Positions 30,924 to 56,159 are shown, counted from the stretch's first letter. The stretch: 62,246 nt of DNA from an uncultured Candidatus Saccharibacteria bacterium (GCA_964393465.1 CAYMTT010000001.1:1-62246); one strand, 5' to 3'. The notes: generated by a model not told the origin, from the letters alone. Numbers and translations are program-made.

Positions 30924-30941
30924 CAGAACCATTTTTAAAAA

Positions 30942-34231: not shown

Positions 34232-35952
34232 GCCGATTTTTTGCCGAAAAATTTCAAAATCTCTTTCCAGTCCATGGTATTGATTATATCTTTTTTCTCG
34301 GCCCATCCTCTCCTGGCCTGGGCTATTCCCAGCTCCATATACCTTAATTGGTCGTTCTGGTGGGAATCGGTGCTGACTACCATTTTGACCCCGGCTTCCT
34401 TGGCTCTTTTTATATTCTGGTCGTTCAAATCCAGCCTTTCGGGATGCGAATTTATTTCCAAAACCGTTCCGAATTCCCTAGCTGCTCTCAAAATTTTGTC
34501 GAGATCGCACCGGTATCCGTCCCTTCTTTTTAAAATTCTGCCGGTTGGATGGGAAATTATCCTTATATAAGGGTTTTTCATGGCCTTGATTATCCTTTCT
34601 GTCATTTCCTTCTCTGGCATGCCGAAATTCGAATGGATTCCGGCGATGGCGTAATCCAGTTCGGATAAGGCCTTGTCGTTAATGTCTATGGAGCCGTCGT
34701 TGAGAATGTTAGTTTCCGCCCCTTTTAAAATCCTGAAATCTTTCCGCTGAGAATTAAGTGCGTCTATTTTTTTGTTGCGCCTGGCAAGTTCTTTTTCGTC
34801 CAAGCCGTGCTCTATTTTCAAAAATTTAGTATGGTCGGAGATTCCCGCGTATCGATATCCCATCTTTCGGGCAGCCTCCGCTATTTCTCCGATGGAATTT
34901 TGCCCTCCATCCCAGCTAGAATGAATGTGCAAATCGCCCAGAATATCTCGGTATTCCACCAAATCGGGCAGCTTCCCTTTTAAGGCCGCTTCCACTTCTC
35001 CGCGGTTTTCCCTCATTTCCGGTGCAATCCAATTCATACCCAAGGCATTGTAAACTCCTTTTTCGGTTTTACCTGCCAAAACCTTTTTACCTTTGAAAAG
35101 CCCGTATTCGGAAAGCTTCATTCCTTTTCCCATAGCGATTTTCCTCAAAGCTATATTGTGTTCTTTGGATCCCGTGAAATACAAAAGGGCCGAGCCGTAG
35201 CTTTTTTCGGAGACCACCCTCAAGTCGATATCGAACCCCTCCTCGACCCTGACCGAAGATTTGGTGGAGCCCTTTCCCCAAACTTTCGTCACCTCTTTCT
35301 GGGAAACGAAAAACTCAACCACTTTTTCCGGCTTTTTGGAAAAAACCAAAATGTCCACGTCTCCGATGGTTTCTTTTTTTCTTCTAAAAGATCCGGCAAC
35401 GTCAATTTTTTCAACTTCGTCCAAAGACTCTAATTTTTTCCGCATTTCCCTGGCCCTAAAGACGATTTCCCCCAATAGAAACCTTCCCCTGCTTTTTTTC
35501 AAAAACTCTATTCCTTCGATAATGTTTTCTTCGGTTTTTTCCCCGAATCCCTCCAAAGAAGCTATTTTGTGCTTTCTGGCGGCCTCTTCCAAACTTTTCA
35601 AATTTCTCACTCCGAGCTCCCGATAAAGGATCTTGGCTTTTTTGGGGCCCATGCCTTCGATTCCTGTAATTTCTTCCAGTCTTAAGGGCATTCTTTTTTT
35701 AAACCGCTCATGGTGTTTTATCTTTCCGGTTTTCAGATACTCTTCTATTTTTTCAGCGATGCTTTTTCCCACTCCGGGAATTTCCTCCAAGGCCTTGATG
35801 CCGCCTTCTTTATAAAATTCTTCTACGTCTTTTTCCATGCTTTCCAAAGATAAAGCGGCCTTGCGGTAGGCGTAAGGCCTGAACTGAGCTTCTCCCATTT
35901 GAAGGTAATCTGCCAATTCGTAAAAGACTTTGGCTATTTCCCGGTTCTTCAT
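34228..35952 (-). CDS. DNA polymerase X family protein with C-terminal PHP domain
   Basis: 574 aa. Pol-beta-like N-terminus (NREIAKVFYELADYL, HhH GVGKSIAEKI, GSFRRKKETIGDVDIL) and PHP motifs (GDLHIHSSWDGG, ISDH). Confidence 0.9.
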   Translation of the reverse strand: MKNREIAKVFYELADYLQMGEAQFRPYAYRKAALSLESMEKDVEEFYKEGGIKALEEIPGVGKSIAEKIEEYLKTGKIKHHERFKKRMPLRLEEITGIEGMGPKKAKILYRELGVRNLKSLEEAARKHKIASLEGFGEKTEENIIEGIEFLKKSRGRFLLGEIVFRAREMRKKLESLDEVEKIDVAGSFRRKKETIGDVDILVFSKKPEKVVEFFVSQKEVTKVWGKGSTKSSVRVEEGFDIDLRVVSEKSYGSALLYFTGSKEHNIALRKIAMGKGMKLSEYGLFKGKKVLAGKTEKGVYNALGMNWIAPEMRENRGEVEAALKGKLPDLVEYRDILGDLHIHSSWDGGQNSIGEIAEAARKMGYRYAGISDHTKFLKIEHGLDEKELARRNKKIDALNSQRKDFRILKGAETNILNDGSIDINDKALSELDYAIAGIHSNFGMPEKEMTERIIKAMKNPYIRIISHPTGRILKRRDGYRCDLDKILRAAREFGTVLEINSHPERLDLNDQNIKRAKEAGVKMVVSTDSHQNDQLRYMELGIAQARRGWAEKKDIINTMDWKEILKFFGKKSA

Positions 35953-36587
35953 CTAATCTTTGGCATGGGATAAACTTTTTCTTTGGGAATTAAATTTTCT
36001 TTTATAAGTAGAAATAAAATTGCGGCAATTATGCCCAAAACGCTCACCGCTACGAAAACCGGAACGAATCCAAAAGAACTGGCCACTACGCCTCCTATAA
36101 TTCCGGCGATCCCGGTAGCGAAACTGGCGGAAGAATTTTCCAGACTCCAAGAAAAAGCTTCTTTCCCCCTGCCAATATGGCGGGTAAAAATTGCCGACCA
36201 CGAAGGAACGGCAAAAGCCATTCCCAAAGCATGGACTGCCTGTAATGCATATATATGCCAAGGGGATGAAGCGAAAATGAAACCCAAAGGAGTGAGGCTC
36301 GCCAAAAACGTCCCCCCTATCAGTGAATAATAATCGTCTTTGTCGCCTTCGTGTTTATCCAAAAAATTAGCTACGGGCAGCTGCATTAAAGCCTGCCCGA
36401 TCCAATAAATTCCCACGGCGATGCCGACCACCTTAGCAGCTTCCCCCATATCCCCGAAGGTAATTCTCTGAGCGATGAAAATCGCCAGAATCGGCACCAC
36501 CAAACCCCAGCCAAAAAGCAGAAAAAAATCAGAGACTACCAATACTCTTATCACCTTGCTGATCGAAGGAAGTTTTATCTTCTTCAT
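35949..36587 (-). CDS. Half-size (6-TM) MFS-like membrane protein
   Basis: 212 aa with six hydrophobic helices and an MFS-like loop (DKHEGDKDDYY). A terminator upstream and a 4-nt overlap with PolX argue against it being a truncated fragment. Confidence 0.55.
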   Translation of the reverse strand: MKKIKLPSISKVIRVLVVSDFFLLFGWGLVVPILAIFIAQRITFGDMGEAAKVVGIAVGIYWIGQALMQLPVANFLDKHEGDKDDYYSLIGGTFLASLTPLGFIFASSPWHIYALQAVHALGMAFAVPSWSAIFTRHIGRGKEAFSWSLENSSASFATGIAGIIGGVVASSFGFVPVFVAVSVLGIIAAILFLLIKENLIPKEKVYPMPKIR

Positions 36588-37070: not shown

Positions 37071-38083
37071 AGCTCTTGATCTATTTTAAGAAAATAGCTT
37101 ATTTTCCTGGAAACTATTTTGCTTACAATCCCGGCCCCTATCTTAAAAAGAATAACCAATCCCAGCAAAGCAACAGCAAGTTCCGCTCCCCTTATGACCA
37201 TGGTGAATACCGGGGCGGTGGAAGCTCCCAGCCCCAAACTGTTGAAAACGAAGGTCTGGAAGGTTTCATGCGTCCCCAAAGCGGTAGGAATCGGAATCAT
37301 CAGGGCCAAATAAGAGAAGCTGATAACCGAAACCGCAGAAAGAAAAGATATACTCTTGCCCAGGGAAAATATCAAAAACCAAGCCCTGACCAAAGTAATT
37401 CCGCATTTTAAAAAAGACAAGGCTACCATCTTCCAGAAAAAAAGCTCTTTGGGCTTCAAAACCGCGAAAATTTCCTCTTCCACTTCCAGAGGCTCAGCAT
37501 CTTTGATGTTTCCGCTGAAAGCCCGGCCGAAGAATTTGAGAATGCTCTGCTTTTTGTGCGATTTGAAGTAAAAAAGAGCGATGCCGGCGGCAAAAATAGA
37601 AAGAACGACAGCCAAGGTGAAAACCAGACGATCGGAAGGCAGTCCCCGGGAAAGAAAAAGAAGAAACACTCCGGGAACAATAATAGACATATAAACGGTA
37701 AGTTCCACCATCCTGTCCACGATGACCGAAGCCATGCCTTTTTCAAAAACCACCGAATGTTTTTCCTTCAAAAAATAAGCTCGGAGAGTTTCTCCGGCGA
37801 ACAAAAAGATGGGAGCGAAAATCATAATGGGAAAACTGGCCAGATAGAGGCGAAAGGCGGCAAAAAAGGAAATATCTTCTCCCTGTTTTCTGACAATCGA
37901 CCTCCAGCGCCAGTTGCCGACGGCCAGCATCAAAAAAGTCAAACCCAATATTATCAGGCCGTCCCATCCAGAAAAAGCCAGAAAAGCCAGACCTATATCT
38001 TCCCAGCCGATGCTTTTGGTGATCCAGAACAAAAGGCCCAAACCCGCCAGCAGGGAAAGCAAAAGAAGCAATAGTTTTTTCAT
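37067..38083 (-). CDS. UPF0104 / lysylphosphatidylglycerol-synthase-TM-region-like (flippase-like) membrane protein
   Basis: 338 aa with about 8 TM helices. The N-terminal LLFWITKSIGWEDI and overall topology are typical of the family. Confidence 0.65.
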   Translation of the reverse strand: MKKLLLLLLSLLAGLGLLFWITKSIGWEDIGLAFLAFSGWDGLIILGLTFLMLAVGNWRWRSIVRKQGEDISFFAAFRLYLASFPIMIFAPIFLFAGETLRAYFLKEKHSVVFEKGMASVIVDRMVELTVYMSIIVPGVFLLFLSRGLPSDRLVFTLAVVLSIFAAGIALFYFKSHKKQSILKFFGRAFSGNIKDAEPLEVEEEIFAVLKPKELFFWKMVALSFLKCGITLVRAWFLIFSLGKSISFLSAVSVISFSYLALMIPIPTALGTHETFQTFVFNSLGLGASTAPVFTMVIRGAELAVALLGLVILFKIGAGIVSKIVSRKISYFLKIDQEL

Positions 38084-38295
38084 TTATCCGAAAGGAATTT
38101 ATTCAGGTCTTTAACCAGCTTGTCGGCGTCTATCTGGTGCATTTCGGCAGCAGACTCTATGGTATCGTTCTGAGCCAGAGGACAGCCGACGCAATGAAGC
38201 CCGTGCTCCAAAAAAACAGGGGCCGTTTCGGGGTATTTTTGCAGAACTTCGGCGATATTCATTTTTTTGGTGATTTTTTTCTTGTTTTCAGGCAT
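38080..38295 (-). CDS. DUF1858 / hybrid-cluster-protein-associated redox disulfide domain protein
   Basis: 71 aa. IAEVLQKYPETAPVFLEHGLHCVGCPLAQNDTIESAA matches the DUF1858 CxxC pattern. Confidence 0.75.
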   Translation of the reverse strand: MPENKKKITKKMNIAEVLQKYPETAPVFLEHGLHCVGCPLAQNDTIESAAEMHQIDADKLVKDLNKFLSDK

Positions 38296-39504: not shown

Positions 39505-40023
39505 TTATTTTATCACCTCGACCTCGAAAGTGTAAAATTCGGCCGGGTTTTTCTTCCAGTAATCGGGAGGCAAGCCGGCCTTGAACATTAAATTCTCCAA
39601 AAAAGTTTCCAAATCCCAGCCATTTTCCAAAGCCACTTGGGGCAGAAAAAGCGCCGCCCTTCCTTGGGCTTTGACCATCAACCCCTGGACTCCCAAGCGC
39701 AGTTCATCTACAGATTTTAAAGGCTTCAAAGGGCCTAAAACGGAAACTTCGTATTCCAGAAAAGGCAGCTCTTCTTCGGAAACGGGAGGGAATCTCGGAT
39801 CTTGGAAGGCGGCGGCAACAGCCAAAAGGGGAACCGCCTTGTAAAGGGGAGATTCGCAATCGATCTGCCCGATACAGCCGCGCAAGAGTCCTTGTTTTTT
39901 TAAAGTGACGAAAACTCCCCGCTTTTCTTTTAATTTTTCCGGGGTTGGCTCAAATTCGGGAATTTCTCTTTCCCTGGCGAAAGTTTCAACCGAAGTTTTA
40001 GCGATGGAAAGCAACCGATCCAT
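39505..40023 (-). CDS. AMMECR1 domain protein (AmmeMemoRadiSam system protein A-like)
   Basis: 172 aa. RGVFVTLKKQGLLRGCIGQ and DPRFPPV motifs. Confidence 0.88.
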   Translation of the reverse strand: MDRLLSIAKTSVETFAREREIPEFEPTPEKLKEKRGVFVTLKKQGLLRGCIGQIDCESPLYKAVPLLAVAAAFQDPRFPPVSEEELPFLEYEVSVLGPLKPLKSVDELRLGVQGLMVKAQGRAALFLPQVALENGWDLETFLENLMFKAGLPPDYWKKNPAEFYTFEVEVIK

Positions 40024-40795
40024 AACCTACCACCCGGTTTTTGTCTCCGGCTTCGACGTCACCGGAATTGGCGTATTTCAAAAGATGAGCTTGTCCTTTC
40101 AAAGACTCAGAAACCTTCATTAAGGTTTTGAGAGAATCTTTTCCGCAGGCTTCCAGAGATGTATAATTTCCGCCGAGCACGGCTTCCAGGGTCCGCTTGT
40201 CTTTTTTTACGGCTTCCCCGTAAGGCAAATAATGGGAAAGGTCTGAAGAGGCCACAATCAAAGTTTTTTTCCGGCCGATATTTCCCAGCAAAGCTTGGGC
40301 CAAACTTTCCCAGTCTTCATCTTCGGAACCGAAAACGATCGGCAGAATTTTGAATTTTTTCAGCGTTTTTTGCAAAAAAGGCAGCTGGACTTCCAAAGAA
40401 TGCTCGAAAATATGGGCCGAATCCCGGGAATAGAATCTTTTAGAAAAAGAGGTAATTTTCTCTACCAGCTGCTCGTCGACTTCCACCTTTCCCAAAGGGG
40501 TCTCCCATTTGCCAGAAGACCAAAAAGACACCCCCTCAAAACGCTCGTAATGGGAATCTCCCATGAGAATGACTGTGTCAAAATCTCTCCCCGCCAGAGC
40601 TTTGTATCCGCAGGCGGCCACCTGGCCGGAGAAAACGTATCCGGCGTGAGGCGAAAGCAAACCGAAAATCTCCCCTTTTATTTCGGGAGCCTCGGCCCGC
40701 GACAAAAGAAAGGAAACGTTTTTTTCCAATTCTTTTTTCTCTTCGGGATAAAATTGTCCGGCTACAGCCGGCGGTCTGATCATATGTTTCAACAA
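39998..40795 (-). CDS. MEMO1-family protein (AmmeMemoRadiSam system protein B-like)
   Basis: 265 aa. RPPAVAGQFYP N-terminus, SPHAGYVFSG, GDSHYE, and SSDLSHY. The alternative start at ATG 40783 would remove the 7-nt overlap. Confidence 0.88.
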   Translation of the reverse strand: MLKHMIRPPAVAGQFYPEEKKELEKNVSFLLSRAEAPEIKGEIFGLLSPHAGYVFSGQVAACGYKALAGRDFDTVILMGDSHYERFEGVSFWSSGKWETPLGKVEVDEQLVEKITSFSKRFYSRDSAHIFEHSLEVQLPFLQKTLKKFKILPIVFGSEDEDWESLAQALLGNIGRKKTLIVASSDLSHYLPYGEAVKKDKRTLEAVLGGNYTSLEACGKDSLKTLMKVSESLKGQAHLLKYANSGDVEAGDKNRVVGYGSVAFHR

Positions 40796-44720: not shown

Positions 44721-45125
44721 TTAGGACGTTTTGTGAAAAAACTTATCTTCAAAAAACCTCAGAGCCGCCAGAATGGCAATGGTCATAAAAGTTACGAATA
44801 AAGAAACCGAATAAAGTTCCATTCCCACGGCGATTCCTATGGCCGCGGCCACCCAAAGCCCGGCGGCAGTGGTCAGCCCTTCAACAAACTTATCGCGGTG
44901 AATAATCAGGCCGGCCCCGATGAAACCGATGCCCGTGGCTACCGCCTGAATCACCCTGCCCAGATCAATGTCTGCCATTTTCTGACCGACGACGGTAAAA
45001 AGAGCCGCTCCCAGACAGACCAAGGCGTAAGTCCTCAGCCCGGCTTCTTTTCTTTTGTATTCCCGCTCTAATCCGAGAAGCCCGCCCAGCAAAGCGGACA
45101 AAAATAGTTGAAGGAAAATTTCCAT
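44721..45125 (-). CDS. mgtC: MgtC/SapB family membrane protein
   Basis: 134 aa. GLLGLEREYKRKEAGLRTYALVCLGAALF. Confidence 0.85.
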   Translation of the reverse strand: MEIFLQLFLSALLGGLLGLEREYKRKEAGLRTYALVCLGAALFTVVGQKMADIDLGRVIQAVATGIGFIGAGLIIHRDKFVEGLTTAAGLWVAAAIGIAVGMELYSVSLFVTFMTIAILAALRFFEDKFFHKTS

Positions 45126-45397
45126 TAAACTTTGTATACCTTGTATCCTTCCCTCACTTTGTCGTCAACCTTCAATCCGACCGAATCTCCGGGTTTGGCC
45201 TTTTGGACCTTCTCATGCTCCACTTCCATGGAATCCACTTTCTGGCTGAAATCGGTTTCCCCTCCCACTATCCTGATTTCATCGCCGACATTCAGTTCTT
45301 CTGAAAGTTTGATAACCGCCACTCCGATGTTTCCGAAATAATGGGTTAATTCGCCTATGAGCTTTCCTTCTTCTACTGGCTGTGGTTCTTTTGCCAT
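45125..45397 (-). CDS. Translation elongation factor-like protein (stand-alone EF-Tu domain-2-like barrel)
   Basis: 90 aa. GELTHYFGNIGVAVIKLSEELNVGDEIRIVGGETDFSQKVDSMEVEHEKVQKAKPGDSVGLKV. Confidence 0.7.
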   Translation of the reverse strand: MAKEPQPVEEGKLIGELTHYFGNIGVAVIKLSEELNVGDEIRIVGGETDFSQKVDSMEVEHEKVQKAKPGDSVGLKVDDKVREGYKVYKV

Positions 45398-45414: not shown

Positions 45415-45963
45415 TTATTTCCGACCTTTTTCTTTTTTAATCTCTTTGATCAGCTTTTGGACCAATTTTTTGGGCTCGATATCGTAAACCATAGGGCCTC
45501 TTTTTTTGTGGGGGCGGCGAAGAATGTATTTTATTAGATCAGCCGTGCCTCCGGACCCTTCCAAAACGCCGATCGGTTTTTTATCCTCGTAAGCGATGGT
45601 GAACTCGTTCAAGGTCCCCATCCTTCCGCAAGCCACGATTACAGCGTCTGCGGCCCTGGTCATTAAAAGATTCCTGCCGGAATAATCGAATCCCGTATAG
45701 ACCACTACGTCAAACTGATCCAAGGGAAGATGATAAACTTTATCGTGCTCCAGTTCGGAAACCGCCGGAGAAAAACCGATGCTTATGCCCCCTTCTTCCT
45801 TGCAGCCTTTGGCCGCCCAATAAGGAACTCCGGTAGTGGCTCCGGTAACCAAAACCACTTCCTGACGGGCTATCTCCCTGCCTATCTCTTCTGACAGTTT
45901 TTTTATATTTTTGGAGCAGTGGCCCATTTTGGCCGCCCCGCTCACTGCAATTTTGAAACGCAT
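45415..45963 (-). CDS. TIGR00725/LOG-like (SLOG) Rossmann-fold protein
   Basis: 182 aa. KIAVSGAA, VLVTGATTGV, and CGRMGTLNEF (a PGGxGTxxE-like motif). Confidence 0.7.
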   Translation of the reverse strand: MRFKIAVSGAAKMGHCSKNIKKLSEEIGREIARQEVVLVTGATTGVPYWAAKGCKEEGGISIGFSPAVSELEHDKVYHLPLDQFDVVVYTGFDYSGRNLLMTRAADAVIVACGRMGTLNEFTIAYEDKKPIGVLEGSGGTADLIKYILRRPHKKRGPMVYDIEPKKLVQKLIKEIKKEKGRK

Positions 45964-46860: not shown

Positions 46861-46866
46861 TTCGGG

Positions 46867-46939
46867 TGCGCCCGGCCTGATTCGAACAGGCGACTTCTGG
46901 CTCCGGAGGCCAGCGTTCTATCCACTGAACTACGGGCGC
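46867..46939 (-). tRNA. tRNA-Arg (anticodon CCG), CCA not encoded
   Basis: I folded it by hand: GCGCCCG-TA-GTTC-AGTGGATA-GAAC-G-CTGGC-CTCCGGA-GCCAG-AAGTC-GCCTG-TTCGAAT-CAGGC-CGGGCGC-A. It has a perfect 7-bp acceptor stem and a canonical T-loop. Confidence 0.92.
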
Positions 46940-47191: not shown

Positions 47192-47215
47192 AAGCCCCTC
47201 CTCCGCGGGGGGCTT
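47192..47215. terminator. GC-rich hairpin between convergent genes
   Basis: AAGCCCC(TC)-loop-(GG)GGGGCTT. It overlaps the TAA of the methyltransferase gene and follows the small plus-strand ORF by 6 nt. Confidence 0.55.
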
Positions 47216-47903
47216 ATTTCTCGGCAACAAAATAAAGATTTCCGTGTTTTTTGCCCGGGCTTTTCAAAAGCCCGGTTTCTTTCACTTTTAATCCAGCTTT
47301 TTCGGCCAGTTTCCGCAGTTCTTTTTCGTCAAAAAGATGAACATAGCGCAAGCAGTCTCTGTTCCAAGGAACCAAAACGTCGCCCGAACCCATTTTCGAT
47401 TTCCCTAAAAACTTCAGAAAAAGAAACTTGGCTCTCAAAATCATTTCTTTCAGAGGAGGGAGCTTCCAAACGGTTACAATCAAAAAGCCTTCCGGGCGCA
47501 GAACCCTGCAAGCCTCCTTTAAAAATTTCAAACGCATATCAAAAGAAGAAATATGGTGGAAAACCCCGATGGAAATTATTTTATCGAAGGAATTTTCGGC
47601 AAAAGGCAGATCCAGGGCGTCGCCGACTTTAAAATCGGCTTCCGGATACTTTTCTCTGGCTATTTCGACGAGCTTTTCGGAAGCATCCAGGCCGCAGTAG
47701 GAAACGTTCTTTTTTTCAATCAAATCGTAAAGCCTTCCGTTGCCGCATCCCAAATCCAGAACCCTGTCTTTGGGGGAAACGTATTTTTCCAAAGACCTCA
47801 ACTCTCCCCATATTTTTTCTCTGCTTCTTGAAAAGTCTCCGGCAATGGAGTTATAATCTTTAATGGTCTTGTTCAACAGATACTGAGCGTATTTTTTATC
47901 CAT
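47214..47903 (-). CDS. Class I SAM-dependent methyltransferase, Trm9/ALKBH8-like
   Basis: 229 aa from ATG 47903 (MDKKYAQ...). The track start at 48014 would run through the elp3 start. Motif series: YNSIAGDFSRSR, VLDLGCGNG, GDALDLPF, SFDKIISIGVFHHI, RVLRPEGFLIVTVW, GDVLVPW, and RYVHLFDEKEL. Confidence 0.7.
   Translation of the reverse strand: MDKKYAQYLLNKTIKDYNSIAGDFSRSREKIWGELRSLEKYVSPKDRVLDLGCGNGRLYDLIEKKNVSYCGLDASEKLVEIAREKYPEADFKVGDALDLPFAENSFDKIISIGVFHHISSFDMRLKFLKEACRVLRPEGFLIVTVWKLPPLKEMILRAKFLFLKFLGKSKMGSGDVLVPWNRDCLRYVHLFDEKELRKLAEKAGLKVKETGLLKSPGKKHGNLYFVAEK
47828..47857 (+). promoter_or_regulatory. Candidate elp3 promoter embedded in the methyltransferase coding region (TTGAAA-18 nt-TATAAT)
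   Basis: -35 TTGAAA at 47828-47833 and -10 TATAAT at 47852-47857, 45 nt upstream of the elp3 ATG. Confidence 0.4.
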
Positions 47904-49416
47904 GAAAGTTTCAGAAGAAATAATTAAAGAATTGGCAAAAAGTCCGCAGGGGACCGATTTGTTGCGCCTTAAAAGGAAAATGGCAAAAAAGTTCAACGTC
48001 TCCTGCCCCAGCAACGTAGAACTTCTTAAAACCTACCATAAAATGGCGGCCCGAAAAAGGGTCGAACCTTCAGAATATATTGAAAACCTTTTGAAAACCA
48101 GGCCGGTCAGATCGCTTTCGGGAATCGTCAACGTATCGGTTTTAGTGAAGCCTTACCCCTGCCCGGGGAAATGCGCCTATTGCCCGCAGGAAAAAAACGC
48201 ACCCAAAAGCTATCTTAAAGGAGAACCTGCCGTGATGAGAGCGATTTTGAACGAATACGACCCTTACAAACAAGTAAAAACCAGATTGAATTCACTGAAA
48301 ATGACGGGGCATCCTACCGACAAGATAATGCTCAGGATAGTCGGAGGGACGTGGTCTTTTTATCCGGAAAAATACAAAAGCGGATTCATTAAAAAATGCT
48401 TTGAAGCCTGCAACGGCAGAAAAGAGGAAAGCTTGGAATCTGCATTTAGGAAAAACGAAAAAGCCGAACATCGCCTGGTGGGAATTTCCATAGAGACCAG
48501 GCCCGATTTCGTGACAAAAAAGGAAATAGAGAATCTGAGAAAACTGGGGGTAACCCAAGTGGAGCTGGGGGTTCAAAGCATATACGAGGACGTTTTGAAA
48601 CTGAACAAAAGAGGGCACGGCGTAAAAGAAACCAAAAAAGCCACCGAAGCCCTGAAAGACGCAGGGTTCAAAATCTGTTATCAAATGATGCCCAATCTCC
48701 CCGGCTCAACCTTGAAACGCGACGAAAAAATGTTCAAAGAGCTTTTTTCCAATCCCGATTTCAAACCCGATTTTCTAAAAATATATCCCTGCGCCGTCTT
48801 GAAAAACACCCTTCTTTACAAATGGTGGAAACGGGGAAAATACAGGCCTTACACCAAAAAACAACTGATAAGCTTGATTAAAAAAATAAAAAGGGAGATA
48901 CCCTGGTACGTGAGAATCCAAAGGATAACCAGGGATATTCCCAGCGGGGAGATAGTGGCCGGCCCCGCCAAAATATCCAATTTAAGGCAGCTGGTTTCGG
49001 GCCAATGCAAATGCATAAGATGCCGGGAAGTGAGAGGAAACTACGATCCCAAAGAAAAAATATTCCTGTTCCGCCAAGACTACGAAGCTTCAAAAGGCAA
49101 AGAAGTTTTTTTGAGCTACGAAAATAAAGGGCGCGACAAGCTTTTCAGCCTTCTACGGCTGCGCCTGACTTCCGACAATAAAACTTTCATCAGGCACCTT
49201 CACACTTACGGAAAGCTTTATCCTTTCGGACCGAAAACTCAAATTTCCCCCCAGCATAAAGGCCTGGGCAAAAAACTGGTAAGAGAGGCAGAAAAAATAT
49301 CCCAAAAAGAATTCGGGGCAAAAAAAATAGCCGTGATTTCCGGCATAGGAGTAAGGGGTTATTACCGAAAGCTGGGCTACAAGCTGAACAATACCTACAT
49401 GGTAAAAAACTTTTGA
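47902..49416 (+). CDS. elp3: Elp3-family radical SAM/GNAT enzyme (tRNA U34 carboxymethyluridine synthase homologue)
   Basis: 504 aa. Radical SAM cluster motif CPGKCAYCP, TIM-barrel region (ISIETRPD, VELGVQS), and a C-terminal GNAT (QHKGLGKKLVREAEKI...GIGVRGYYRKLGY). Confidence 0.88.
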   Translation: MKVSEEIIKELAKSPQGTDLLRLKRKMAKKFNVSCPSNVELLKTYHKMAARKRVEPSEYIENLLKTRPVRSLSGIVNVSVLVKPYPCPGKCAYCPQEKNAPKSYLKGEPAVMRAILNEYDPYKQVKTRLNSLKMTGHPTDKIMLRIVGGTWSFYPEKYKSGFIKKCFEACNGRKEESLESAFRKNEKAEHRLVGISIETRPDFVTKKEIENLRKLGVTQVELGVQSIYEDVLKLNKRGHGVKETKKATEALKDAGFKICYQMMPNLPGSTLKRDEKMFKELFSNPDFKPDFLKIYPCAVLKNTLLYKWWKRGKYRPYTKKQLISLIKKIKREIPWYVRIQRITRDIPSGEIVAGPAKISNLRQLVSGQCKCIRCREVRGNYDPKEKIFLFRQDYEASKGKEVFLSYENKGRDKLFSLLRLRLTSDNKTFIRHLHTYGKLYPFGPKTQISPQHKGLGKKLVREAEKISQKEFGAKKIAVISGIGVRGYYRKLGYKLNNTYMVKNF

Positions 49417-50509: not shown

Positions 50510-51631
50510 TCATAGTCTCTTTTTAAGCCTGGAAAAAGCGGCTTCTTTTTCTCTAAGGGAAATTCCGCTTTTTTTTATCCCTCTGGCTATAATCTGCAGG
50601 GTTTTATCGTAGGTCTCCCTGTCCACCGGGAAAGGAGTGCTGTCTTTTCCTCCGTGGGCGAACGTATAGCGGGCCGGATCCTCATAGGAAGGTTTGGCCC
50701 CGTAGATTATTTCTGCCACCAAAGAAAGAGCCCTAACGGTCCTGGGGCCCACTCCCTTTAAAGCCAAAAAGCTTTCGAAGTCTTCCGGTTTTCTTTCGGA
50801 AGCCGAAAATATGGTCTTTTCCAGCCTTTTCAGGTCGAACTTTTCCTGAACCACTGGATGCCAATGGAATTCCCTGTCGTAAAGTTGCATCATAGTCAGA
50901 TTCTTGGATTGCCGAGTCTGGATAAGGTTCAGGTCTTTCAGAAAGGTCTTCGGCTCTTCTTTGACCATGGCTCCGCTTATCTCTCTGTTTTTTTCGCTTT
51001 CTTGGGCTACCAGATTCAAAGGATTGCCTTTCAAAGAGGAAATGATTCCCGAATGAGGCTCCCGGATGAAATCGGTTTTTTCTTTCTGCCGGGATAAGCC
51101 CGATGAAATCCAATGGTAGCGGCGGGCAGTCTGATTGCCGATATTCATTCCCTGTTGAACAACAGCCCAATCTCCCGATTTTGTGAAAAGAAAATTATGC
51201 TGGTAAATCTGGTATTTGTCCTGAATCAGGGAAGAATCGACCTTAGCTGCCATTTTTGAAGCGTAAATAAGATCCGGAGCGAAAGAAAAGCGCCTGGATA
51301 TGCCGTAAGCTTCTATTTCGGAGGGAGTTTCCCTGGAAGCCTTCTTTCCTCCGCAAACATAGATCCCCAACCGGTCCTGAATGTCAAAAAGACCGGCTTT
51401 TAAGGCTCCCAAAGTGGTAACCGTCAGCCCCGAAGAATTCCAATCGAATCCAAGAACGCAGCCGAAAGACTGGAACCAAACGGGATCGGAAATCCTTCTT
51501 AAGAATTCTTCCGGTCCGAACTCCTCTACCACGGCCGCAGTTATCCCTTTCGAAAGATTTTTCATCCTTTCGAAAAGCCAGCGGGGGCATTTTCCGTAAT
51601 CCAAAGGAACTGTTGCTATACCGACTCTCAT
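50510..51631 (-). CDS. DUF763 domain protein
   Basis: 373 aa. N-terminal ATVPLDYGKCPRWLFERM..., and a helix-hairpin-helix-like LKGVGPRTVRALSLVAE near aa 290. Confidence 0.75.
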   Translation of the reverse strand: MRVGIATVPLDYGKCPRWLFERMKNLSKGITAAVVEEFGPEEFLRRISDPVWFQSFGCVLGFDWNSSGLTVTTLGALKAGLFDIQDRLGIYVCGGKKASRETPSEIEAYGISRRFSFAPDLIYASKMAAKVDSSLIQDKYQIYQHNFLFTKSGDWAVVQQGMNIGNQTARRYHWISSGLSRQKEKTDFIREPHSGIISSLKGNPLNLVAQESEKNREISGAMVKEEPKTFLKDLNLIQTRQSKNLTMMQLYDREFHWHPVVQEKFDLKRLEKTIFSASERKPEDFESFLALKGVGPRTVRALSLVAEIIYGAKPSYEDPARYTFAHGGKDSTPFPVDRETYDKTLQIIARGIKKSGISLREKEAAFSRLKKRL

Positions 51632-52993: not shown

Positions 52994-53938
52994 TTACGCC
53001 CTGGAAATTCTTATCAATCCCGAGCAGGGAATGACTTCTATTCCCTCTTTCTGGAGTTCATCCAGGAAAAGATTCATTCCCAAAGAATCCGAAGACATGT
53101 GTCCGGCAATAACAACATTCAGATGGGCGGCTTTGGCCTCTTTTCTGTGCTCTTCGGACTGATGCATGGAAACGACAGTGCCTATTCCCGCCTGCACCAT
53201 TTTCTCATAAAGTTTTGGGGAACCCTCCGTCCCTCCGGTGATTTCGGTAACCGTGACCCTTCCGCAGCGATTTTCCGGGGACCCCACGAAAAGCTTGGGG
53301 CCGGCCCCTATTTTTGCGGCTTCTTTGTATTCGGGTATGCTTTTCAAGAGCTTGAGCACATCTTCCAGTCTTTCGGGAGAAGCTTCTTCTATTTTCTCTC
53401 TCAGGAAGCGGGCGGCCAGATTGTCGCAGGGGGTATGGCAGTTTATCAGGTTGGCTCCGGCCAAGCGGGCGGTATCTACCGCTCTCTGATGGTTGGCGGC
53501 GCTCACTCCCCTAGCCACTTCGGAAATCCTCTCTTTCATCAAATCCTCGGCCACGTTTATGGGAACCCCGTACTGATTCAAAACGTCACATTGGAGCTCC
53601 ATAACTTCGTGAAGATTGGCCAAAGCTTTTCCCCTGGGATGGTGGGCTATTATGAGATCGATGTTGCCAAGATCTTTTGCCAGAAGAATTTCAGCAGAAT
53701 CTATATCTATTCCGGCCAGAACCTTTTTGATTTCTTTGTCTTGGGCCACGTTCAGAATCTGGGAGTCCGAATACGGATTTTTTAGCCTGTCTGTATCGAA
53801 ATATTCCTTAGCCTCCGGAGAAAGCTTTTCGTATTTGTCTTTTTTTCTCTGCAAAAGCCCGACTATGGCGTCTCTGCCCCGAAAGTCGGCCTCGACTCCC
53901 ATTTTAAGGGCCAAATTGTATATATCTTTGGTTTTCAT
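52994..53938 (-). CDS. NIF3/YbgI-family dinuclear metal centre protein
   Basis: IIAHHPRG, NCHTPCDN and AGHMSSDSLGMN motifs. I placed the start at ATG 53938 (MKTKDIY). The track start at 53989 is a TTG that would overlap the small upstream ORF. Confidence 0.8.
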   Translation of the reverse strand: MKTKDIYNLALKMGVEADFRGRDAIVGLLQRKKDKYEKLSPEAKEYFDTDRLKNPYSDSQILNVAQDKEIKKVLAGIDIDSAEILLAKDLGNIDLIIAHHPRGKALANLHEVMELQCDVLNQYGVPINVAEDLMKERISEVARGVSAANHQRAVDTARLAGANLINCHTPCDNLAARFLREKIEEASPERLEDVLKLLKSIPEYKEAAKIGAGPKLFVGSPENRCGRVTVTEITGGTEGSPKLYEKMVQAGIGTVVSMHQSEEHRKEAKAAHLNVVIAGHMSSDSLGMNLFLDELQKEGIEVIPCSGLIRISRA

Positions 53939-53972
53939 ATCCGTTGTACTGTAACAAAAAACGGCCTTTTTG

Positions 53973-54113
53973 TCAAAGAGAGCCGCCAAAAACCTTTCGG
54001 TACAAATCGTTTATCCGCTCCTCCCTCTCTTTGGGATCTGAAAACTCCCTCCTAATGCGGGCTTTTTCTTTTCTGACGTATTTACGGATTGATTTTGGAA
54101 GTTTTTTCTTCAT
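53973..54113 (-). CDS. Hypothetical small basic protein (46 aa) translationally coupled to rtcB
   Basis: Below the ORF-track cutoff; I translated it by hand: MKKKLPKSIRKYVRKEKARIRREFSDPKEREERINDLYRKVFGGSL. Its ATG (54113-54111) overlaps the rtcB TGA (54112-54110) as ATGA. Confidence 0.4.
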   Translation of the reverse strand: MKKKLPKSIRKYVRKEKARIRREFSDPKEREERINDLYRKVFGGSL

Positions 54114-55549
54114 TCTCCTTTGATTACGGCTAAAGGTTCGAGTCTGGCCACTTTTCTGGAAAGTCCGGCCTTGTGCACTGTTTCCACCACTCCGTCTATA
54201 TCTTTATACGCCAAAGGGGCCTCTTCGGCAATACCCCTGGGACTGCGGCATTTGACCACGATCCCTTTTTTTGCCAAAACATCCAAAACCTCGCGGCCGG
54301 AAATCTTTCTCATGGCCGCGTGCCGGGACATGGTTCTTCCCGCCCCATGATTCACCGTGTAGAAAGCTTCTTTGGATTTTTCGGTCCCCACGCAGACATA
54401 AGAAGAGGTTCCCATAGAGCCGGGAATGAGAACGGGCTGGCCGGAAGAAGAATATTCTTCGGGCAGTTCGGGATGTCCCGGGGGAAATGCTCTGGTCGCC
54501 CCTTTGCGGTGAACCAGCAGCTTTTTTTTCTGTCCGCCGATTTCATGCTCTTCCATCTTGGCGATATTGTGGGCGACGTCGTAAAGCAAAGAAAGGCCGG
54601 ATTTGCCTCCGAGAGCCTCCTTCCAGGCCTTTCTGACGTAATGGGTGATCATCTGGCGGTTGGCCCAGGCGAAATTGCAAGCGGCCGACATGGCCCCGAA
54701 AAACCTCCGGCCTTCCGAGGAATCGAAAGGAACGCAAGCCAGCTCTTTATCGGGCAGATCGATTCCGTATTTGGAAAAGGCCGGCATCACTTCCTTTAAA
54801 TAGTCTGCGCAGTTCTGGTGGCCCAATCCCCGGCTTCCGGTATGTATCATCACCAAAACCTGGTTTTCGAAAAGCCCGAAAGCAGCGGCGACCGAAGGGT
54901 CGAATATCTCTTTGACCTGCTGGACTTCCAGAAAATGGTTCCCTGATCCCAGAGTTCCCAGCTGGCCTTTCCCCCGGCTCTTGGCCCTGCCAGAAATTAA
55001 AGAAGCTTGGGCTTTTTCCATTTTCCCTTTTTCTTCGCAGCGCTCGGCATCCTCTTTTTCTCCGAAGCCCCGCCTCACCAGTTCGGGAACTCCTCCTTCC
55101 AGTATGCTGTCGAGTTCGGAAAAAGAAAGTTCGGATTTTCTCCCCCTGCCCAGACCCGAAGGAACTTCTTTTTGCATCAAAGAAGCCAGTTTGTCCAAGC
55201 GGGAAGCCAATTTTTCTTTTTTGTATTCCGACTTTAAAATCCTGACTCCGCAATTTTGGTCGTATCCCACGAATCCGGGAGAAATTACCCCTTCGGAAAG
55301 CCCGAAAGCTCCCACTCCTCCGATGGGAGGGCCGTAGCCCGAATGAATGTCGGGCATGGCCAGTACTCTTTCTGCCAGCCCGGGAAGACAGGCCGTATTC
55401 ACCAACTGTTGAAGAGCGGCATTTTCGACCCGGGAAAACATTTCCTCTGAGATGTAGATTCTGGCCGGAACCTTCATCTCTCTCCAGAAAGAAACTGGAA
55501 TTTCCCAGGCGTACTCGCTTATTCTTTTGAAATCTTTTTTGGAAATCAT
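54110..55549 (-). CDS. rtcB: RNA-splicing ligase RtcB
   Basis: 479 aa. PDIHSGYG, GSGNHFLE, HTGSRGLGHQ, and NHGAGR motifs. Confidence 0.95.
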   Translation of the reverse strand: MISKKDFKRISEYAWEIPVSFWREMKVPARIYISEEMFSRVENAALQQLVNTACLPGLAERVLAMPDIHSGYGPPIGGVGAFGLSEGVISPGFVGYDQNCGVRILKSEYKKEKLASRLDKLASLMQKEVPSGLGRGRKSELSFSELDSILEGGVPELVRRGFGEKEDAERCEEKGKMEKAQASLISGRAKSRGKGQLGTLGSGNHFLEVQQVKEIFDPSVAAAFGLFENQVLVMIHTGSRGLGHQNCADYLKEVMPAFSKYGIDLPDKELACVPFDSSEGRRFFGAMSAACNFAWANRQMITHYVRKAWKEALGGKSGLSLLYDVAHNIAKMEEHEIGGQKKKLLVHRKGATRAFPPGHPELPEEYSSSGQPVLIPGSMGTSSYVCVGTEKSKEAFYTVNHGAGRTMSRHAAMRKISGREVLDVLAKKGIVVKCRSPRGIAEEAPLAYKDIDGVVETVHKAGLSRKVARLEPLAVIKGE

Positions 55550-55951
55550 TTAAACGTCGAATAAAACGACGGCCCGGCAGCCTCTTTTCTCGCAGACCGT
55601 CCGCAATGAATGATAAGTGGCCCCTTTTATCTCTCTTTGGAAACCGGAAACTTTCCTGCCTTTAAAAAATCCGCGGATTTTCTTTTCGGAAAACAGGGAA
55701 AAATCGGCAGAAAGATAAACTTCTTTTTCCGCCTGGCCGAGAGAAAGGACTTCGTTCAGAAAATCTGCCAGAAGAAGGGAAGAATCGGAAGATTCCACCT
55801 CGAACCCCCTTTCAACTTCGCTTTTTTGCAATTCCGGCTTTAAATATTCGGCTGCCGCCTCCAGGCAGTTCAAAAAAAGAGCTTCTCTGTCTTTTCCGAA
55901 AACCTCCATTTTCAAATCGGCCGCATGATCCAAAATTCTGTACTTCATCAT
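55550..55951 (-). CDS. Archease (RtcB activator)
   Basis: M(M)KYRILDHAADLKMEVFG... and C-terminal IKGATYHSL. I placed the start at ATG 55951 or 55948. The track start at 56062 runs through a strong terminator hairpin. Confidence 0.85.
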   Translation of the reverse strand: MMKYRILDHAADLKMEVFGKDREALFLNCLEAAAEYLKPELQKSEVERGFEVESSDSSLLLADFLNEVLSLGQAEKEVYLSADFSLFSEKKIRGFFKGRKVSGFQREIKGATYHSLRTVCEKRGCRAVVLFDV

Positions 55952-55955
55952 TTTA

Positions 55956-55983
55956 ACAATAGCAAAAACAGCGATTTTGTCAT
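55956..55983 (-). promoter_or_regulatory. Candidate archease-rtcB promoter (ATGACA-16 nt-TGcTATTGT)
   Basis: The minus strand has -35 ATGACA (55983-55978) and extended -10 TGCTATTGT (55964-55956). Only 4 nt separate the -10 from the ATG, and there is no SD. Confidence 0.35.
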
Positions 55984-55987
55984 CCCA

Positions 55988-56018
55988 AACAAAAAAGCAA
56001 CCGGTAATGGTTGCTTTT
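55988..56018 (-). terminator. Strong intrinsic terminator upstream of the archease gene
   Basis: Perfect 10-bp palindrome AAAAGCAACC-(6 nt)-GGTTGCTTTT, with a T-run on the minus strand. Confidence 0.65.
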
Positions 56019-56021
56019 GAA

Positions 56022-56159
56022 TTAAGTTCCGCCTTTCTCCATTCTTTCCAGGGATATTTCAAGGCTTTCTTCTAGAACTTCCGGATGTTCTCCGTCTTCG
56101 GCCGAAGCCGAAACGATTTGAGAAATCAATTCCAGTCTTTTTCCGGAATCTTCTGCCAT
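56022..56159 (-). CDS. Hypothetical small acidic protein (45 aa)
   Basis: ATG 56159 lies 8 nt after a perfect AGGAGG (56173-56168). The sequence is MAEDSGKRLELISQIVSASAEDGEHPEVLEESLEISLERMEKGGT, followed directly by the terminator. Confidence 0.45.
   Translation of the reverse strand: MAEDSGKRLELISQIVSASAEDGEHPEVLEESLEISLERMEKGGT

Follow-up and report, generated by a model that had tools for sequence, protein, structure and literature searches.

A divergent Elp3 and Trm9-like methyltransferase gene pair in Patescibacteria and Dehalococcoidia: a predicted bacterial pathway for wobble mcm5U34

Organization of the locus

The window analysed here is a 62,246-nt stretch of DNA from an uncultured Candidatus Saccharibacteria bacterium, in which an Elp3 gene and a methyltransferase gene lie head to head; the features of this locus are the following.

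47214–47903, minus strand: Trm9-like class I SAM methyltransferase, 229 aa from ATG
47828–47857, plus strand: candidate sigma-70-type Elp3 promoter (TTGAAA, 18 nt, TATAAT), within the methyltransferase CDS
47901–47904, both strands: CATG in which the two divergent start codons overlap, as the sequence itself shows
47902–49416, plus strand: Elp3, 504 aa, radical-SAM plus GNAT/KAT, predicted tRNA U34 cm5U synthase

The ATG of Elp3 on the plus strand and that of the methyltransferase on the minus strand have two bases of the CATG in common, which bears out the head-to-head arrangement described in the initial annotation. The TTG start given in the ORF listing, from which the methyltransferase would reach 266 aa, was rejected as too long because the homologues, 228–231 aa in length, align with the whole (100%) of the 229-aa product. 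A Shine–Dalgarno motif is absent at both genes of the pair; this is unremarkable, since such a motif precedes only 9 of the window's 51 genes. The tmRNA found at 30562–30926 shows that the window is bacterial, and the nearest homologues of the methyltransferase carry the names Candidatus Nealsonbacteria, Pacebacteria or Patescibacteria; no relative of Elp3 was detected in the viral contigs scanned with it.

Identity of Elp3

The gene at 47902–49416 is confirmed as a full-length Elp3 by the curated family cut-off, with a score of 548 bits against NCBIfam TIGR01211 (cut-off 350) over residues 17–503 of 504, and its family membership makes it a predicted cm5U34 synthase. The Pfam models Radical_SAM (PF04055, 66.7 bits) and Radical_SAM_C (PF16199, 86.2 bits) match the protein, ELP3_N on residues 2–71 falls slightly below its cut-off (25.1 bits for 27), and the GNAT models are weak and below cut-off (17–19 bits), as they equally are for the Elp3 proteins of Dehalococcoidia. 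The initial annotation had made the same call from a radical-SAM CPGKCAYC and a C-terminal GNAT, and both elements can be located: CPGKCAYC, the three-cysteine [4Fe-4S] radical-SAM motif, occupies residues 87–94 and is one residue shorter than the CPHGKCIFC of M. infernus Elp3, while the acetyl-CoA motif QHKGLG (451–456) and the C-terminal GYYRKLGY (486–493) align to the KAT domain of the M. infernus protein. The linker cysteines CKCIRC (369–374) are of the prokaryotic type, and the N-terminus is extended and basic, with 17 K+R within the first 75 residues. The closest solved structures are those of Elp3 from M. infernus (2e-131), D. mccartyi (6e-115) and eukaryotes (1e-106).

Relation of the methyltransferase to Trm9

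Comparisons with solved structures by sequence, profile and fold all give Trm9 as the best match of the methyltransferase, in agreement with the earlier description of this neighbour as Trm9/ALKBH8-like. In a single-sequence phmmer search against the PDB, Yarrowia Trm9 (5cm2_Z) scores 69.6 bits and the next structure 54.8; a profile search also ranks 5cm2_Z first (87.3 bits; next 80.1), with only a small margin over PH0226, and Foldseek with the AlphaFold2 model (pLDDT 94.5; Rossmann-type strand/helix order) returns the same chain on top (E 4e-17, 31% identity; other matches at most 24%), the margin being modest, since another class I methyltransferase reaches 1e-16. The Dehalococcoidia protein is less clearly ranked, with Trm9 only seventh among its PDB matches.

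Family-level comparisons point in the same direction. A fungal Trm9 HMM scores 93.8 bits on the window protein and a median of 92.5 bits on 81 proteins from Patescibacteria (CPR); among 1,185 ORFs of at least 150 aa from the window and the related loci it matched 83, and the 25 lowest-scoring of these all lie at methyltransferase coordinates. Conversely, an HMM of the CPR family gives 95–104 bits to fungal Trm9 and 22.7 bits to E. coli CmoM. The similarity extends over the full length of Trm9 and takes in both the Y..IA..FS.TR helix at the N-terminus and the motifs VPW, RY.H and N at the C-terminus, all of which fall outside the SAM-binding core; every motif of the series listed in the initial annotation was located in the 229-aa protein (residues 17–28, 49–56, 94–100, 110–117, 133–139, 143–146, 175–180 and 186–196), motif I being LDLGCGNG at 49–56. 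The methyltransferase thus appears, from its sequence and modelled fold, to be nearer to Trm9 than to the other characterised methyltransferases compared (PDB, NCBIfam, CmoM).

The names and domain models attached to the family are less specific, and could be taken to mean that the neighbour of Elp3 is an ordinary methyltransferase of the UbiE, BioC or CmoM type whose adjacency is incidental. Some family members are called TRM9 by JGI automatic naming, while other sources use 'ubiquinone/menaquinone biosynthesis C-methylase UbiE' or 'class I SAM-dependent methyltransferase'; Pfam detects the generic Methyltransf_11/25/31 domains only, with Ubie_methyltran at 40 bits, and no NCBIfam model reaches its cut-off (best DVU_1556, 70 bits for 155). 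Against these labels, UbiE/MenG and BioC remain far below their NCBIfam cut-offs (59 bits for 158 and 55 for 185, respectively), and a CmoM-like function was rejected on a BLASTP score of 26 bits, as against 84 for Trm9. The identification of the neighbour in the initial annotation stood up to these comparisons, and the question of adjacency is taken up below with the conservation of the pair.

Conservation of active-site residues

Mutagenesis of yeast Trm9 (ScTrm9) has identified R29, D72, H116, W145, W168, R241, Y243 and N271 as required (PMC4678810), and H24, K31, Q149 and D270 as dispensable (PMC4678810; Létoquart 2015). Seven of the eight essential residues are kept in the window protein, where R28, D73, H117, W146, W180, R186 and N222 correspond to ScTrm9 R29, D72, H116, W145, W168, R241 and N271, respectively; the sole essential position that differs is Y243, replaced by V188. 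Among the 81 CPR proteins, the equivalents of R29 and of D72 (the SAM-binding acidic residue, D73 in the window) are invariant, the latter also in all five Dehalococcoidia proteins; W145 and N271 are each kept in 80 and R241 in 69, the H116 position is occupied by H (76) or Q (5), and the W168 position mostly by W (69) or F (10). The position of Y243 is aromatic or aliphatic in these proteins, with counts of Y 34, V 15, F 15 and I 8. The four dispensable positions, in contrast, are not conserved and vary freely in the 81 proteins, so that the pattern of conserved and dispensable residues mirrors the yeast mutational data.

These observations also bear on a different explanation, in which the methyltransferase is tied to Elp3 and methylates some other target, such as another uridine atom or tRNA position, Elp3, or a small molecule. 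The purely generic Pfam domains, the closeness of PH0226 and other uncharacterised methyltransferases to Trm9 in profile and fold scores, the lack of conservation of Y243, and a helical insertion of about 17 residues in the CPR proteins that is absent from Trm9 would all be compatible with such a target. Nevertheless, conservation falls on those residues that in the Trm9 model bind the carboxylate of cm5U and the uracil, and not on the dispensable ones, which would be unexpected for a different substrate; moreover, the similarity includes the N- and C-terminal motifs outside the SAM-binding core, and the partner gene is predicted to make exactly the substrate of Trm9. Another target is accordingly considered improbable, and esterification of cm5U is the reading pursued here.

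Trm112 interface

Every characterised Trm9, the eukaryotic and Haloferax enzymes included, requires Trm112 (PMC4678810, PMC6144793), and many bacteria have Trm112 homologues without a known partner (PMC5372719); both facts would favor a version of the same pathway in which the methyltransferase works only as a heterodimer with a zinc-ribbon protein of the Trm112/YcaR type whose gene lies elsewhere in the genome. In fungal Trm9 the complex is formed through a hydrophobic patch around strand beta3, and Trm112 shields its three central hydrophobic positions, V59, F78 and V102 in Yarrowia lipolytica (Yl) numbering. The interface residues give a divided picture. The position of V59 is K/R in 64 of the 81 CPR proteins and that of F78 is D/E/N in 53, replacements common to the CPR and Dehalococcoidia proteins; V102 is mixed, and R115 is not kept. 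On the side of the heterodimer, F116 is F in 76/81 and D117 is D in 70/81, a conservation that may have reasons other than Trm112 binding. No Trm112 zinc-ribbon or [FY]P..G[IV]P motif was found by regular expression, nor any significant match to E. coli YcaR by tblastn (best E-value 0.69), in a search that covered the whole 62-kb window and up to 10 kb from the pair in 86 loci.

Since polar or charged residues prevail at two of the three core hydrophobic Trm112-contact positions and the neighbourhood searched contains no homologue of Trm112, the methyltransferase probably acts as a stand-alone enzyme, and an obligate Trm112 partner is judged unlikely, less so than the alternative of another target. 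The divergence from a Trm112-type interface argues for a stand-alone variant of Trm9 rather than against the catalytic assignment.

Conservation of the gene pair

The genomic context was compared in 80 CPR loci, collected with a methyltransferase profile on contigs from one genome per species, a sampling anchored on the methyltransferase that covers the CPR genomes carrying it. A look-up of the window's own methyltransferase for an annotated neighbourhood gave no record. Elp3 lies immediately upstream on the opposite strand in 77 of these loci, or 77 of the 79 that are informative, as one of the remaining three is cut by the contig end and two have no Elp3. The start-to-start gap in the 77 pairs has a median of 2 nt, and 20 of them show the overlap of −2. 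The pair persists in loci whose methyltransferase identity is as low as 36%, whereas the genes around it differ, and relatives of the methyltransferase occur in at least 456 species-level genome stretches. The reverse test, anchored on Elp3 and carried out for the Dehalococcoidia-type Elp3 only, found a divergent methyltransferase neighbour at five of the six Elp3 loci of Dehalococcoidia, D. mccartyi CP019867 among them, and these neighbours carry the same Trm9 signature residues. The conservation test suggested in the initial annotation is thus passed.

A third conserved gene was also considered; the strongest of these, namely an EF-Tu-domain-2-like protein of 90 aa, SLOG, NIF3, TIGR00375 and MurE, were rejected as background synteny because these recurrent neighbours occur in at most 39 of the 80 CPR loci, mostly in closer relatives.

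The pairing of Elp3 with the methyltransferase is far beyond chance, and the module is widespread in bacteria and no peculiarity of this genome. The related loci share 35–54% identity and are not near-identical strains, so that the synteny, retained in a second phylum, refutes the incidental adjacency of an ordinary UbiE-, BioC- or CmoM-type enzyme; together with the scores given above, it leaves hardly any probability to that explanation. The presence of the module across Patescibacteria and Dehalococcoidia points instead to a bacterial version of the archaeal Elp3/Trm9 pathway that is general in kind.

Proposed pathway

The most probable reading of the locus, in which we have fairly good confidence, is an archaeal-style two-gene bacterial pathway in which Elp3 would form cm5U34 and the Trm9-like methyltransferase would convert it to mcm5U34 (5-methoxycarbonylmethyluridine), probably without Trm112. 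In the first step, to which family membership points, a stand-alone Elp3 would bind the tRNA through its basic N-terminus and would use SAM at the [4Fe-4S] radical-SAM site and acetyl-CoA at the KAT site to place a carboxymethyl group on C5 of U34, yielding cm5U, as archaeal Elp3 has been shown to do. In the second, the methyltransferase would esterify the cm5U carboxylate with SAM to give mcm5U, a step to which the conserved active-site residues and the gene linkage point; by homology, R28 and H117 would position the carboxylate, N222 and H116 would read the uracil, and W146 and W180 would stack on the bases.

The initial annotation had proposed an mcm5U34 module of eukaryotic type. The Elp3 and Trm9 pairing stands; the type does not, since a stand-alone Elp3 with Trm9 and without the other Elongator subunits is better called archaeal.

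Comparison with known systems

The closest parallel is the archaeal Elp3 and Trm9 pathway (HVO_2888 and HVO_1032-Trm112 in Haloferax volcanii), in which, as here, Elp3 occurs without Elp1, 2, 4, 5 and 6 and a Trm9-family methyltransferase is genetically linked to it; mcm5U, the product predicted here, has been shown in Haloferax. The likeness includes a full-length Elp3 that has three cysteines in the linker and a basic N-terminus, and whose best structural match is M. infernus; the sequence comparison of the methyltransferase was made with fungal Trm9. CPR bacteria have many archaeal-type genes. The differences lie in the host, a bacterium by its tmRNA, in the head-to-head genes with overlapping starts, and in the Trm112 dependence of archaeal Trm9, which contrasts with the mostly polar or charged contact positions described above. 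Clustering of Elp3 and Trm9 genes is already known in Sulfolobus solfataricus (PMC2584109, PMC6144793).

Among the eukaryotic enzymes of the Trm9-Trm112 and ALKBH8 type, Trm9 of Yarrowia lipolytica (5CM2) shares about 30% full-length identity and the same fold with the window protein (TM-score 0.82 on the target), and the residues in common with eukaryotic Trm9, in yeast numbering, are R29, D72, H115, H116, W145, W168, R241 and N271. The window protein differs in the absence of a Trm112-type interface and in the change of Y243 to V, the CPR proteins have an extra helix at residues ~150–166, and AlkB and RRM domains are absent; the upstream eukaryotic enzyme is the six-subunit Elongator, here replaced by a single Elp3.

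In bacteria, the stand-alone Elp3 of Dehalococcoides mccartyi (DmcElp3, PDB 5L7J), so far the sole bacterial Elp3 to have been studied, scores 387 bits to the window Elp3. Upstream of its gene, at a distance of 43 nt, lies a divergent methyltransferase gene whose 224-aa product shows the same Trm9 signature; this neighbour is not mentioned in the literature searched, which did not include the 2016 structure paper. The two systems differ in that DmcElp3 is without the extended N-terminus present in the window protein (PMC6367351), and in that the Dehalococcoidia methyltransferases (28–33% identity to the window protein in the multiple alignment) have no CPR helical insertion and their pairs have start codons that do not overlap, with gaps of 43–267 nt. 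Only very weak activity has been reported for recombinant DmcElp3 (PMC7663514).

MnmE/MnmG (with MnmC) and CmoM act, like the predicted pair, on C5 of the wobble uridine. MnmEG, a GTPase and a flavoprotein using glycine and methylene-THF, is unrelated to the Elp3/Trm9 pair in chemistry and enzymes; CmoM, also of the class I methyltransferases, forms an ester at the carboxyl group of a modified U34, as is predicted for the enzyme here, and its similarity in sequence is distant, as the BLASTP and family-HMM scores indicate.

No description of a bacterial two-gene Elp3-Trm9 pathway was found in the searchable literature, in line with the earlier remark that no report of this pairing in bacteria was known. 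In reference lists cm5U and mcm5U appear for archaea and eukaryotes alone (PMC7694415), and no bacterium has been shown to contain either (PMC7663514, PMC7694415); according to a review of 2017, bacterial homologues of the methyltransferases that partner with Trm112 could not be detected (PMC5372719), and a 2020 review on Elongator knows bacterial Elp3 only from Dehalococcoides, with no evidence for xcm5U there (PMC7663514). The conservation of the pair across CPR bacteria and Dehalococcoides suggests that mcm5U, never reported in bacteria, is made there, and turns the linked genes into a concrete two-gene prediction. A small and probably self-sufficient Trm9 would serve structural and mechanistic work without Trm112, and the function of bacterial Elp3 is open to direct testing, since cultures exist of D. 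mccartyi and of a few Patescibacteria, for example Microsyncoccus archaeolyticus PMX.50, which carries the pair. The pair further bears on the decoding of split codon boxes in CPR bacteria.

Candidate promoter within the methyltransferase gene

With the two genes arranged start to start and almost no spacer between them, at least the Elp3 promoter should lie within the CDS of its partner, an arrangement that couples the inheritance of the two genes and possibly their expression. A consensus scan of 47828–47857 on the plus strand gives 11 of 12 matches to the TTGAAA–18 nt–TATAAT type, which makes this segment a candidate Elp3 promoter inside the methyltransferase gene, its function being inferred from the sequence. 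The −10 box is written in the methyltransferase codons D16-Y17-N18 and the −35 box in F24-S25. Of 71 loci, 33 have a perfect TATAAT at this position, with TTGAAA 18 nt upstream in 22 of the 33, and the codon of Ser25 is TCA in 33/61, compared with a background of 22% (binomial p 6.5e-8, phylogeny not corrected for); the TAT codon bias at Tyr17 is not above background. A position-fixed −10 box for the methyltransferase was sought within the Elp3 CDS, and none was found.

A more far-reaching and tentative proposal, possible rather than probable, is that Patescibacteria/CPR and Dehalococcoidia make their wobble xm5 modification with an archaeal-type Elp3 and a Trm112-independent Trm9 and not with MnmE/MnmG, and that in CPR bacteria the promoters are mutually embedded in the CDSs of the partners, the Elp3 promoter having its −10 and −35 boxes in the codons of the conserved Trm9 motifs DYN and FS. 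If this is true, mcm5U or mcm5s2U, which current lists do not give for Bacteria, would be the usual modification of the wobble base over a considerable share of bacterial diversity, and a stand-alone bacterial Trm9 would show the form of this enzyme before its dependence on Trm112. The overlapping divergent starts, together with a candidate promoter written into a conserved protein motif, make the junction of the two genes a compact dual-use sequence.

The Elp3 locus and its host

The ORF listing of the 44-53 kb region contains two divergent genes, given here with two features bearing on the nature of the host:

47902-49416, + strand: Elp3, 504 aa
47214-47903, - strand: methyltransferase, 229 aa, ATG at 47903
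30562-30926, + strand: tmRNA, Rfam 87.6 bits
30120-30569, + strand: SmpB-like ORF, judged on its own sequence with no family-library scan

The longest reading of the methyltransferase ORF begins with a TTG at 48014; the ATG at 47903 is preferred as the start because homologues measure 228-231 aa and span 100% of the 229-aa protein. The junction reads TTATCCATGAAAG, and the two start codons therefore overlap, the ATG of Elp3 (47902-47904, +) and that of the methyltransferase (47903-47901, -) sharing two bases within CATG. The window is bacterial, with the tmRNA as marker, and the closest relatives of the methyltransferase carry the labels Candidatus Nealsonbacteria, Pacebacteria or Patescibacteria, which places the host in the candidate phyla radiation (CPR). 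The SmpB-like ORF lies directly 5' of the tmRNA gene, with a slight overlap.

The initial annotation had proposed an Elp3 paired head-to-head with a Trm9-like methyltransferase, and both halves of this proposal hold. The 504-aa protein scores 548 bits against NCBIfam TIGR01211 (Elp3; curated cut-off 350), matches Radical_SAM, Radical_SAM_C and ELP3_N in Pfam, and aligns with the solved structures of Elp3 from Methanocaldococcus infernus (2e-131), Dehalococcoides mccartyi (6e-115) and eukaryotes (about 1e-106). Its radical-SAM cysteines lie in CPGKCAYC (87-94) and its linker cysteines, of the prokaryotic type, in CKCIRC (369-374); the acetyl-CoA motif is QHKGLG (451-456), and GYYRKLGY stands at the C-terminal end. 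The N-terminus carries a basic extension (17 K+R among the first 75 residues) that is absent from the D. mccartyi Elp3, DmcElp3 (PMC6367351).

Identity of the methyltransferase

Pfam assigns the methyltransferase no more than generic class I domains (Methyltransf_11, 25, 31), and no model comes near its cut-off in an NCBIfam scan (UbiE/MenG 59 vs 158, BioC 55 vs 185). The top PDB sequence match is Yarrowia lipolytica Trm9 (5cm2_Z, from the Trm9-Trm112 complex), with 69.6 bits vs 54.8 for the next, in an alignment reaching the C-terminal VPW and RY.HL motifs; with a 45-member family profile Trm9 is again first (87.3 bits), PH0226 being a close second (80.1). The AlphaFold2 model built on the same 45-member alignment is predicted with confidence (pLDDT 94.5, pTM 0.91), and a Foldseek search of the PDB again ranks 5cm2_Z first (E 4e-17, 31% identity, target TM-score 0.82), the remaining matches listed showing at most 24% identity. 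A fungal Trm9 HMM, from sequences gathered using the Yarrowia fragment, gives 93.8 bits for the window protein and a median of 92.5 (range 65.6-113.2) for 81 CPR family members; it has 83 matches among the 1,185 ORFs of at least 150 aa in the window and all fetched loci, and the 25 lowest-scoring of these, those listed, all fall at methyltransferase coordinates found with the query. In the reverse direction, the CPR family HMM gives 95-104 bits for fungal Trm9 and 22.7 for E. coli CmoM, the other known U34 carboxyl methyltransferase; in BLASTP the two reach 84 and 26 bits. A few family members are named 'TRM9' by JGI automatic annotation, so the similarity has already been caught by pipelines but, to our knowledge, has not been discussed. 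CPR members carry a helical insertion of about 17 residues (residues ~150-166, ~47406-47456) between the VW and VPW motifs, which corresponds to helix 150-165 of the model and is absent from fungal Trm9 and from the Dehalococcoidia proteins.

Active site and Trm112 interface

Mutagenesis of yeast Trm9 showed that R29, D72, H116, W145, W168, R241, Y243 and N271 are required, that H24, K31, R122, E148, Q149 and D270 are dispensable, and that H115 has a mild effect (Létoquart et al. 2015, PMC4678810). These positions were transferred through a separate mapping alignment and the Yarrowia sequence, and counted on 81 CPR and five Dehalococcoidia proteins.

Table. Required yeast Trm9 residues, window equivalents and state in 81 CPR proteins
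R29: R28; 81/81
D72: D73; 81/81
H116: H117; H 76, Q 5
W145: W146; 80/81
W168: W180; W 69, F 10
R241: R186; 69/81
Y243: V188; Y, V, F or I
N271: N222; 80/81

The four mapped dispensable positions of the six (H24, K31, Q149, D270) vary freely. With most required residues kept and the mapped dispensable ones variable, conservation mirrors the experimental map for cm5U methylation, a match that, judged from sequence, would be hard to explain under a different substrate.

In the Yarrowia complex, Trm112 shields a hydrophobic patch of Trm9 (V59, F78, V102, A110, P112, F116), with polar contacts through E100, R115 and D117. Among the 81 CPR proteins, K or R replaces V59 in 64 and D, E or N replaces F78 in 53; the V102 position is mixed, R115 has not been retained, and F116 and D117 are conserved. 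V59 and F78 are replaced in the same way in the five Dehalococcoidia proteins. Neither a Trm112 motif search nor tblastn with E. coli YcaR, the bacterial Trm112 homologue, yields anything significant in the window and 86 related loci (best E-value for YcaR, 0.69), the stretches searched in the related genomes extending about 10 kb to each side of the pair. These features point to a methyltransferase predicted to act independently of Trm112.

Conservation of the pair

A methyltransferase-profile scan of GTDB r232, with one genome per species, finds a relative encoded in at least 456 genome stretches, the best 80 of which were fetched with 10-kb flanks, so that the CPR loci are anchored on the methyltransferase and not on Elp3. 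Their records name Nealsonbacteria, Paceibacterota, Portnoybacteria, Campbellbacteria, Falkowbacteria, Berkelbacteria, Kerfeldbacteria, Kuenenbacteria, Magasanikbacteria, Peregrinibacteria, Minisyncoccales and Microsyncoccus archaeolyticus. By tblastn with the window Elp3, in 77/80 loci Elp3 is the immediate upstream neighbour, encoded on the other strand; L017 is cut by a contig end, and L056 and L064 give no Elp3 in this search. The pairing persists down to 35% methyltransferase and 39% Elp3 identity, and the remaining neighbours (a 90-aa EF-Tu-domain-2-like protein, a SLOG protein, NIF3, TIGR00375, MurE) recur in at most 39/80 loci, mainly of closer relatives. On the methyltransferase side lie the EF-Tu-domain-2-like beta-barrel protein (45125-45397, -; 39/80 loci) and the SLOG-cluster-4 protein (45415-45963, -; 28/80), which we read as background synteny, a functional link being possible. 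Six loci with a CPR-type pair (L034, L052, L066, L068, L070, L073) come from records named 'Pacearchaeota archaeon' or 'uncultured Gammaproteobacteria bacterium', bin labels that may be unreliable; L034 has an 800-nt gap and a partial Elp3 match.

For a second phylum, the DmcElp3 sequence was rebuilt from the PDB alignment, relatives were collected and six loci read. A divergent Methyltransf_11 gene (186-224 aa) lies 43-267 nt upstream of Elp3 in D. mccartyi CP019867 and four Dehalococcoidia-type contigs (5/6 loci), the sixth contig having no divergent methyltransferase neighbour. These proteins are 28-33% identical to the window protein in a multiple alignment and share its signature (R, HH, VW, VPW, RYY, C-terminal N), with Trm9 only their seventh PDB match. 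The occurrence of the pair in both CPR and Dehalococcoidia argues that a head-to-head Elp3/Trm9-like arrangement is a general feature of bacterial Elp3. Around the Dehalococcoidia pairs, QueH and a GNAT acetyltransferase adjoin in L081-L083, an ArsP_1 permease fragment is near in L081, L082 and L085, and a Zincin_1 protein follows Elp3 in L085 and L086.

Gene architecture and a candidate promoter

Across the 77 CPR loci the two start codons are estimated to lie a median of 2 nt apart; the CATG overlap recurs in 20/77, and most others have gaps of at most 14 nt, so that promoters and 5' regions must sit within the partner gene. A consensus scan identifies a candidate Elp3 promoter, TTGAAA-18 nt-TATAAT (47828-47857, +), inside the methyltransferase coding sequence and 45 nt before the Elp3 ATG, its -10 box being the reverse complement of codons D16-Y17-N18 (GAT TAT AAC) and its -35 box that of TTT TCA A, the codons F24-S25 with one further base. 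At exactly this position 33/71 loci have a perfect TATAAT, with TTGAAA 18 nt upstream in 22. The Ser25 codon is TCA in 33/61 cases vs 22% elsewhere in the methyltransferase genes (binomial p 6.5e-8, relatedness ignored); the Tyr17 TAT codon is not enriched, and a search for a position-fixed -10 box for the methyltransferase gene found none. Neither gene has a Shine-Dalgarno motif, such motifs preceding only 9/51 window genes, and in several genes (e.g. 20877-22523, 38080-38295, 45415-45963, 35949-36587) a hexamer resembling TATAAT precedes the ATG by 6-10 nt. Transcripts with a short leader or none thus seem common in this genome.

Proposed function

Both proteins are members of their families, the active site is conserved and the genes are linked. 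Most likely, Elp3 would make cm5U34, as established for the archaeal enzyme, and the Trm9-like methyltransferase would methyl-esterify it to mcm5U34; the earlier reading of the pair as an mcm5U34 pathway is supported at the sequence level, the chemistry, the tRNA substrates and any later 2-thiolation being predicted. Clustering of the genes for Elp3 and Trm9 is known from Sulfolobus solfataricus, Trm9 homologues being found in a limited number of archaea (PMC2584109), and mcm5U is made by Haloferax Trm9-Trm112 (PMC6144793). For bacteria, a 2017 review described MnmEG/MnmC as the route used and detected no gene resembling eukaryotic Trm112 partners (PMC5372719), a 2020 review restricted Elp3 to Dehalococcoides and remarked that evidence for xcm5U derivatives is lacking there (PMC7663514), a 2026 paper mentions Elp3 in 'numerous bacteria' (PMC13315578), and the modified-nucleoside catalogue lists only cmnm5U, mnm5U and nm5U in this group (PMC7694415). 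Our full-text literature search returned no paper connecting Elp3 or Trm9 with CPR/Patescibacteria and no description of the methyltransferase adjoining DmcElp3. The pair is a conserved bacterial module, probably Trm112-independent and unusual in that its divergent genes overlap; it would be a known pathway in a new form.

Other features of the window

A candidate thiouridine synthase, for which no curated family reaches its cut-off, belongs with its neighbours to a small tRNA-modification gene cluster:

2224-3147, - strand: PP-loop ATPase (ThiI/MnmA-type HUP domain) fused to an NFACT-R_2 RNA-binding domain
1671-2243: Sua5/TsaC
676-1698: TsaD

A tRNA-Leu(aag) called by ARAGORN (51456-51539, -) within the DUF763 coding sequence is probably a false positive, since Rfam misses it at the gathering threshold; both tools agree on tRNA-Arg(ccg) (46865-46939), which lies just downstream of the methyltransferase. 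Several genes have an archaeal or eukaryotic flavour:

54110-56062, - strand: RtcB, with an archease-like neighbour
52994-53989, - strand: NIF3
39505-40795, - strand: AMMECR1-Memo pair
50510-51631, - strand: DUF763
34228-35952, - strand: PolX with PHP domain
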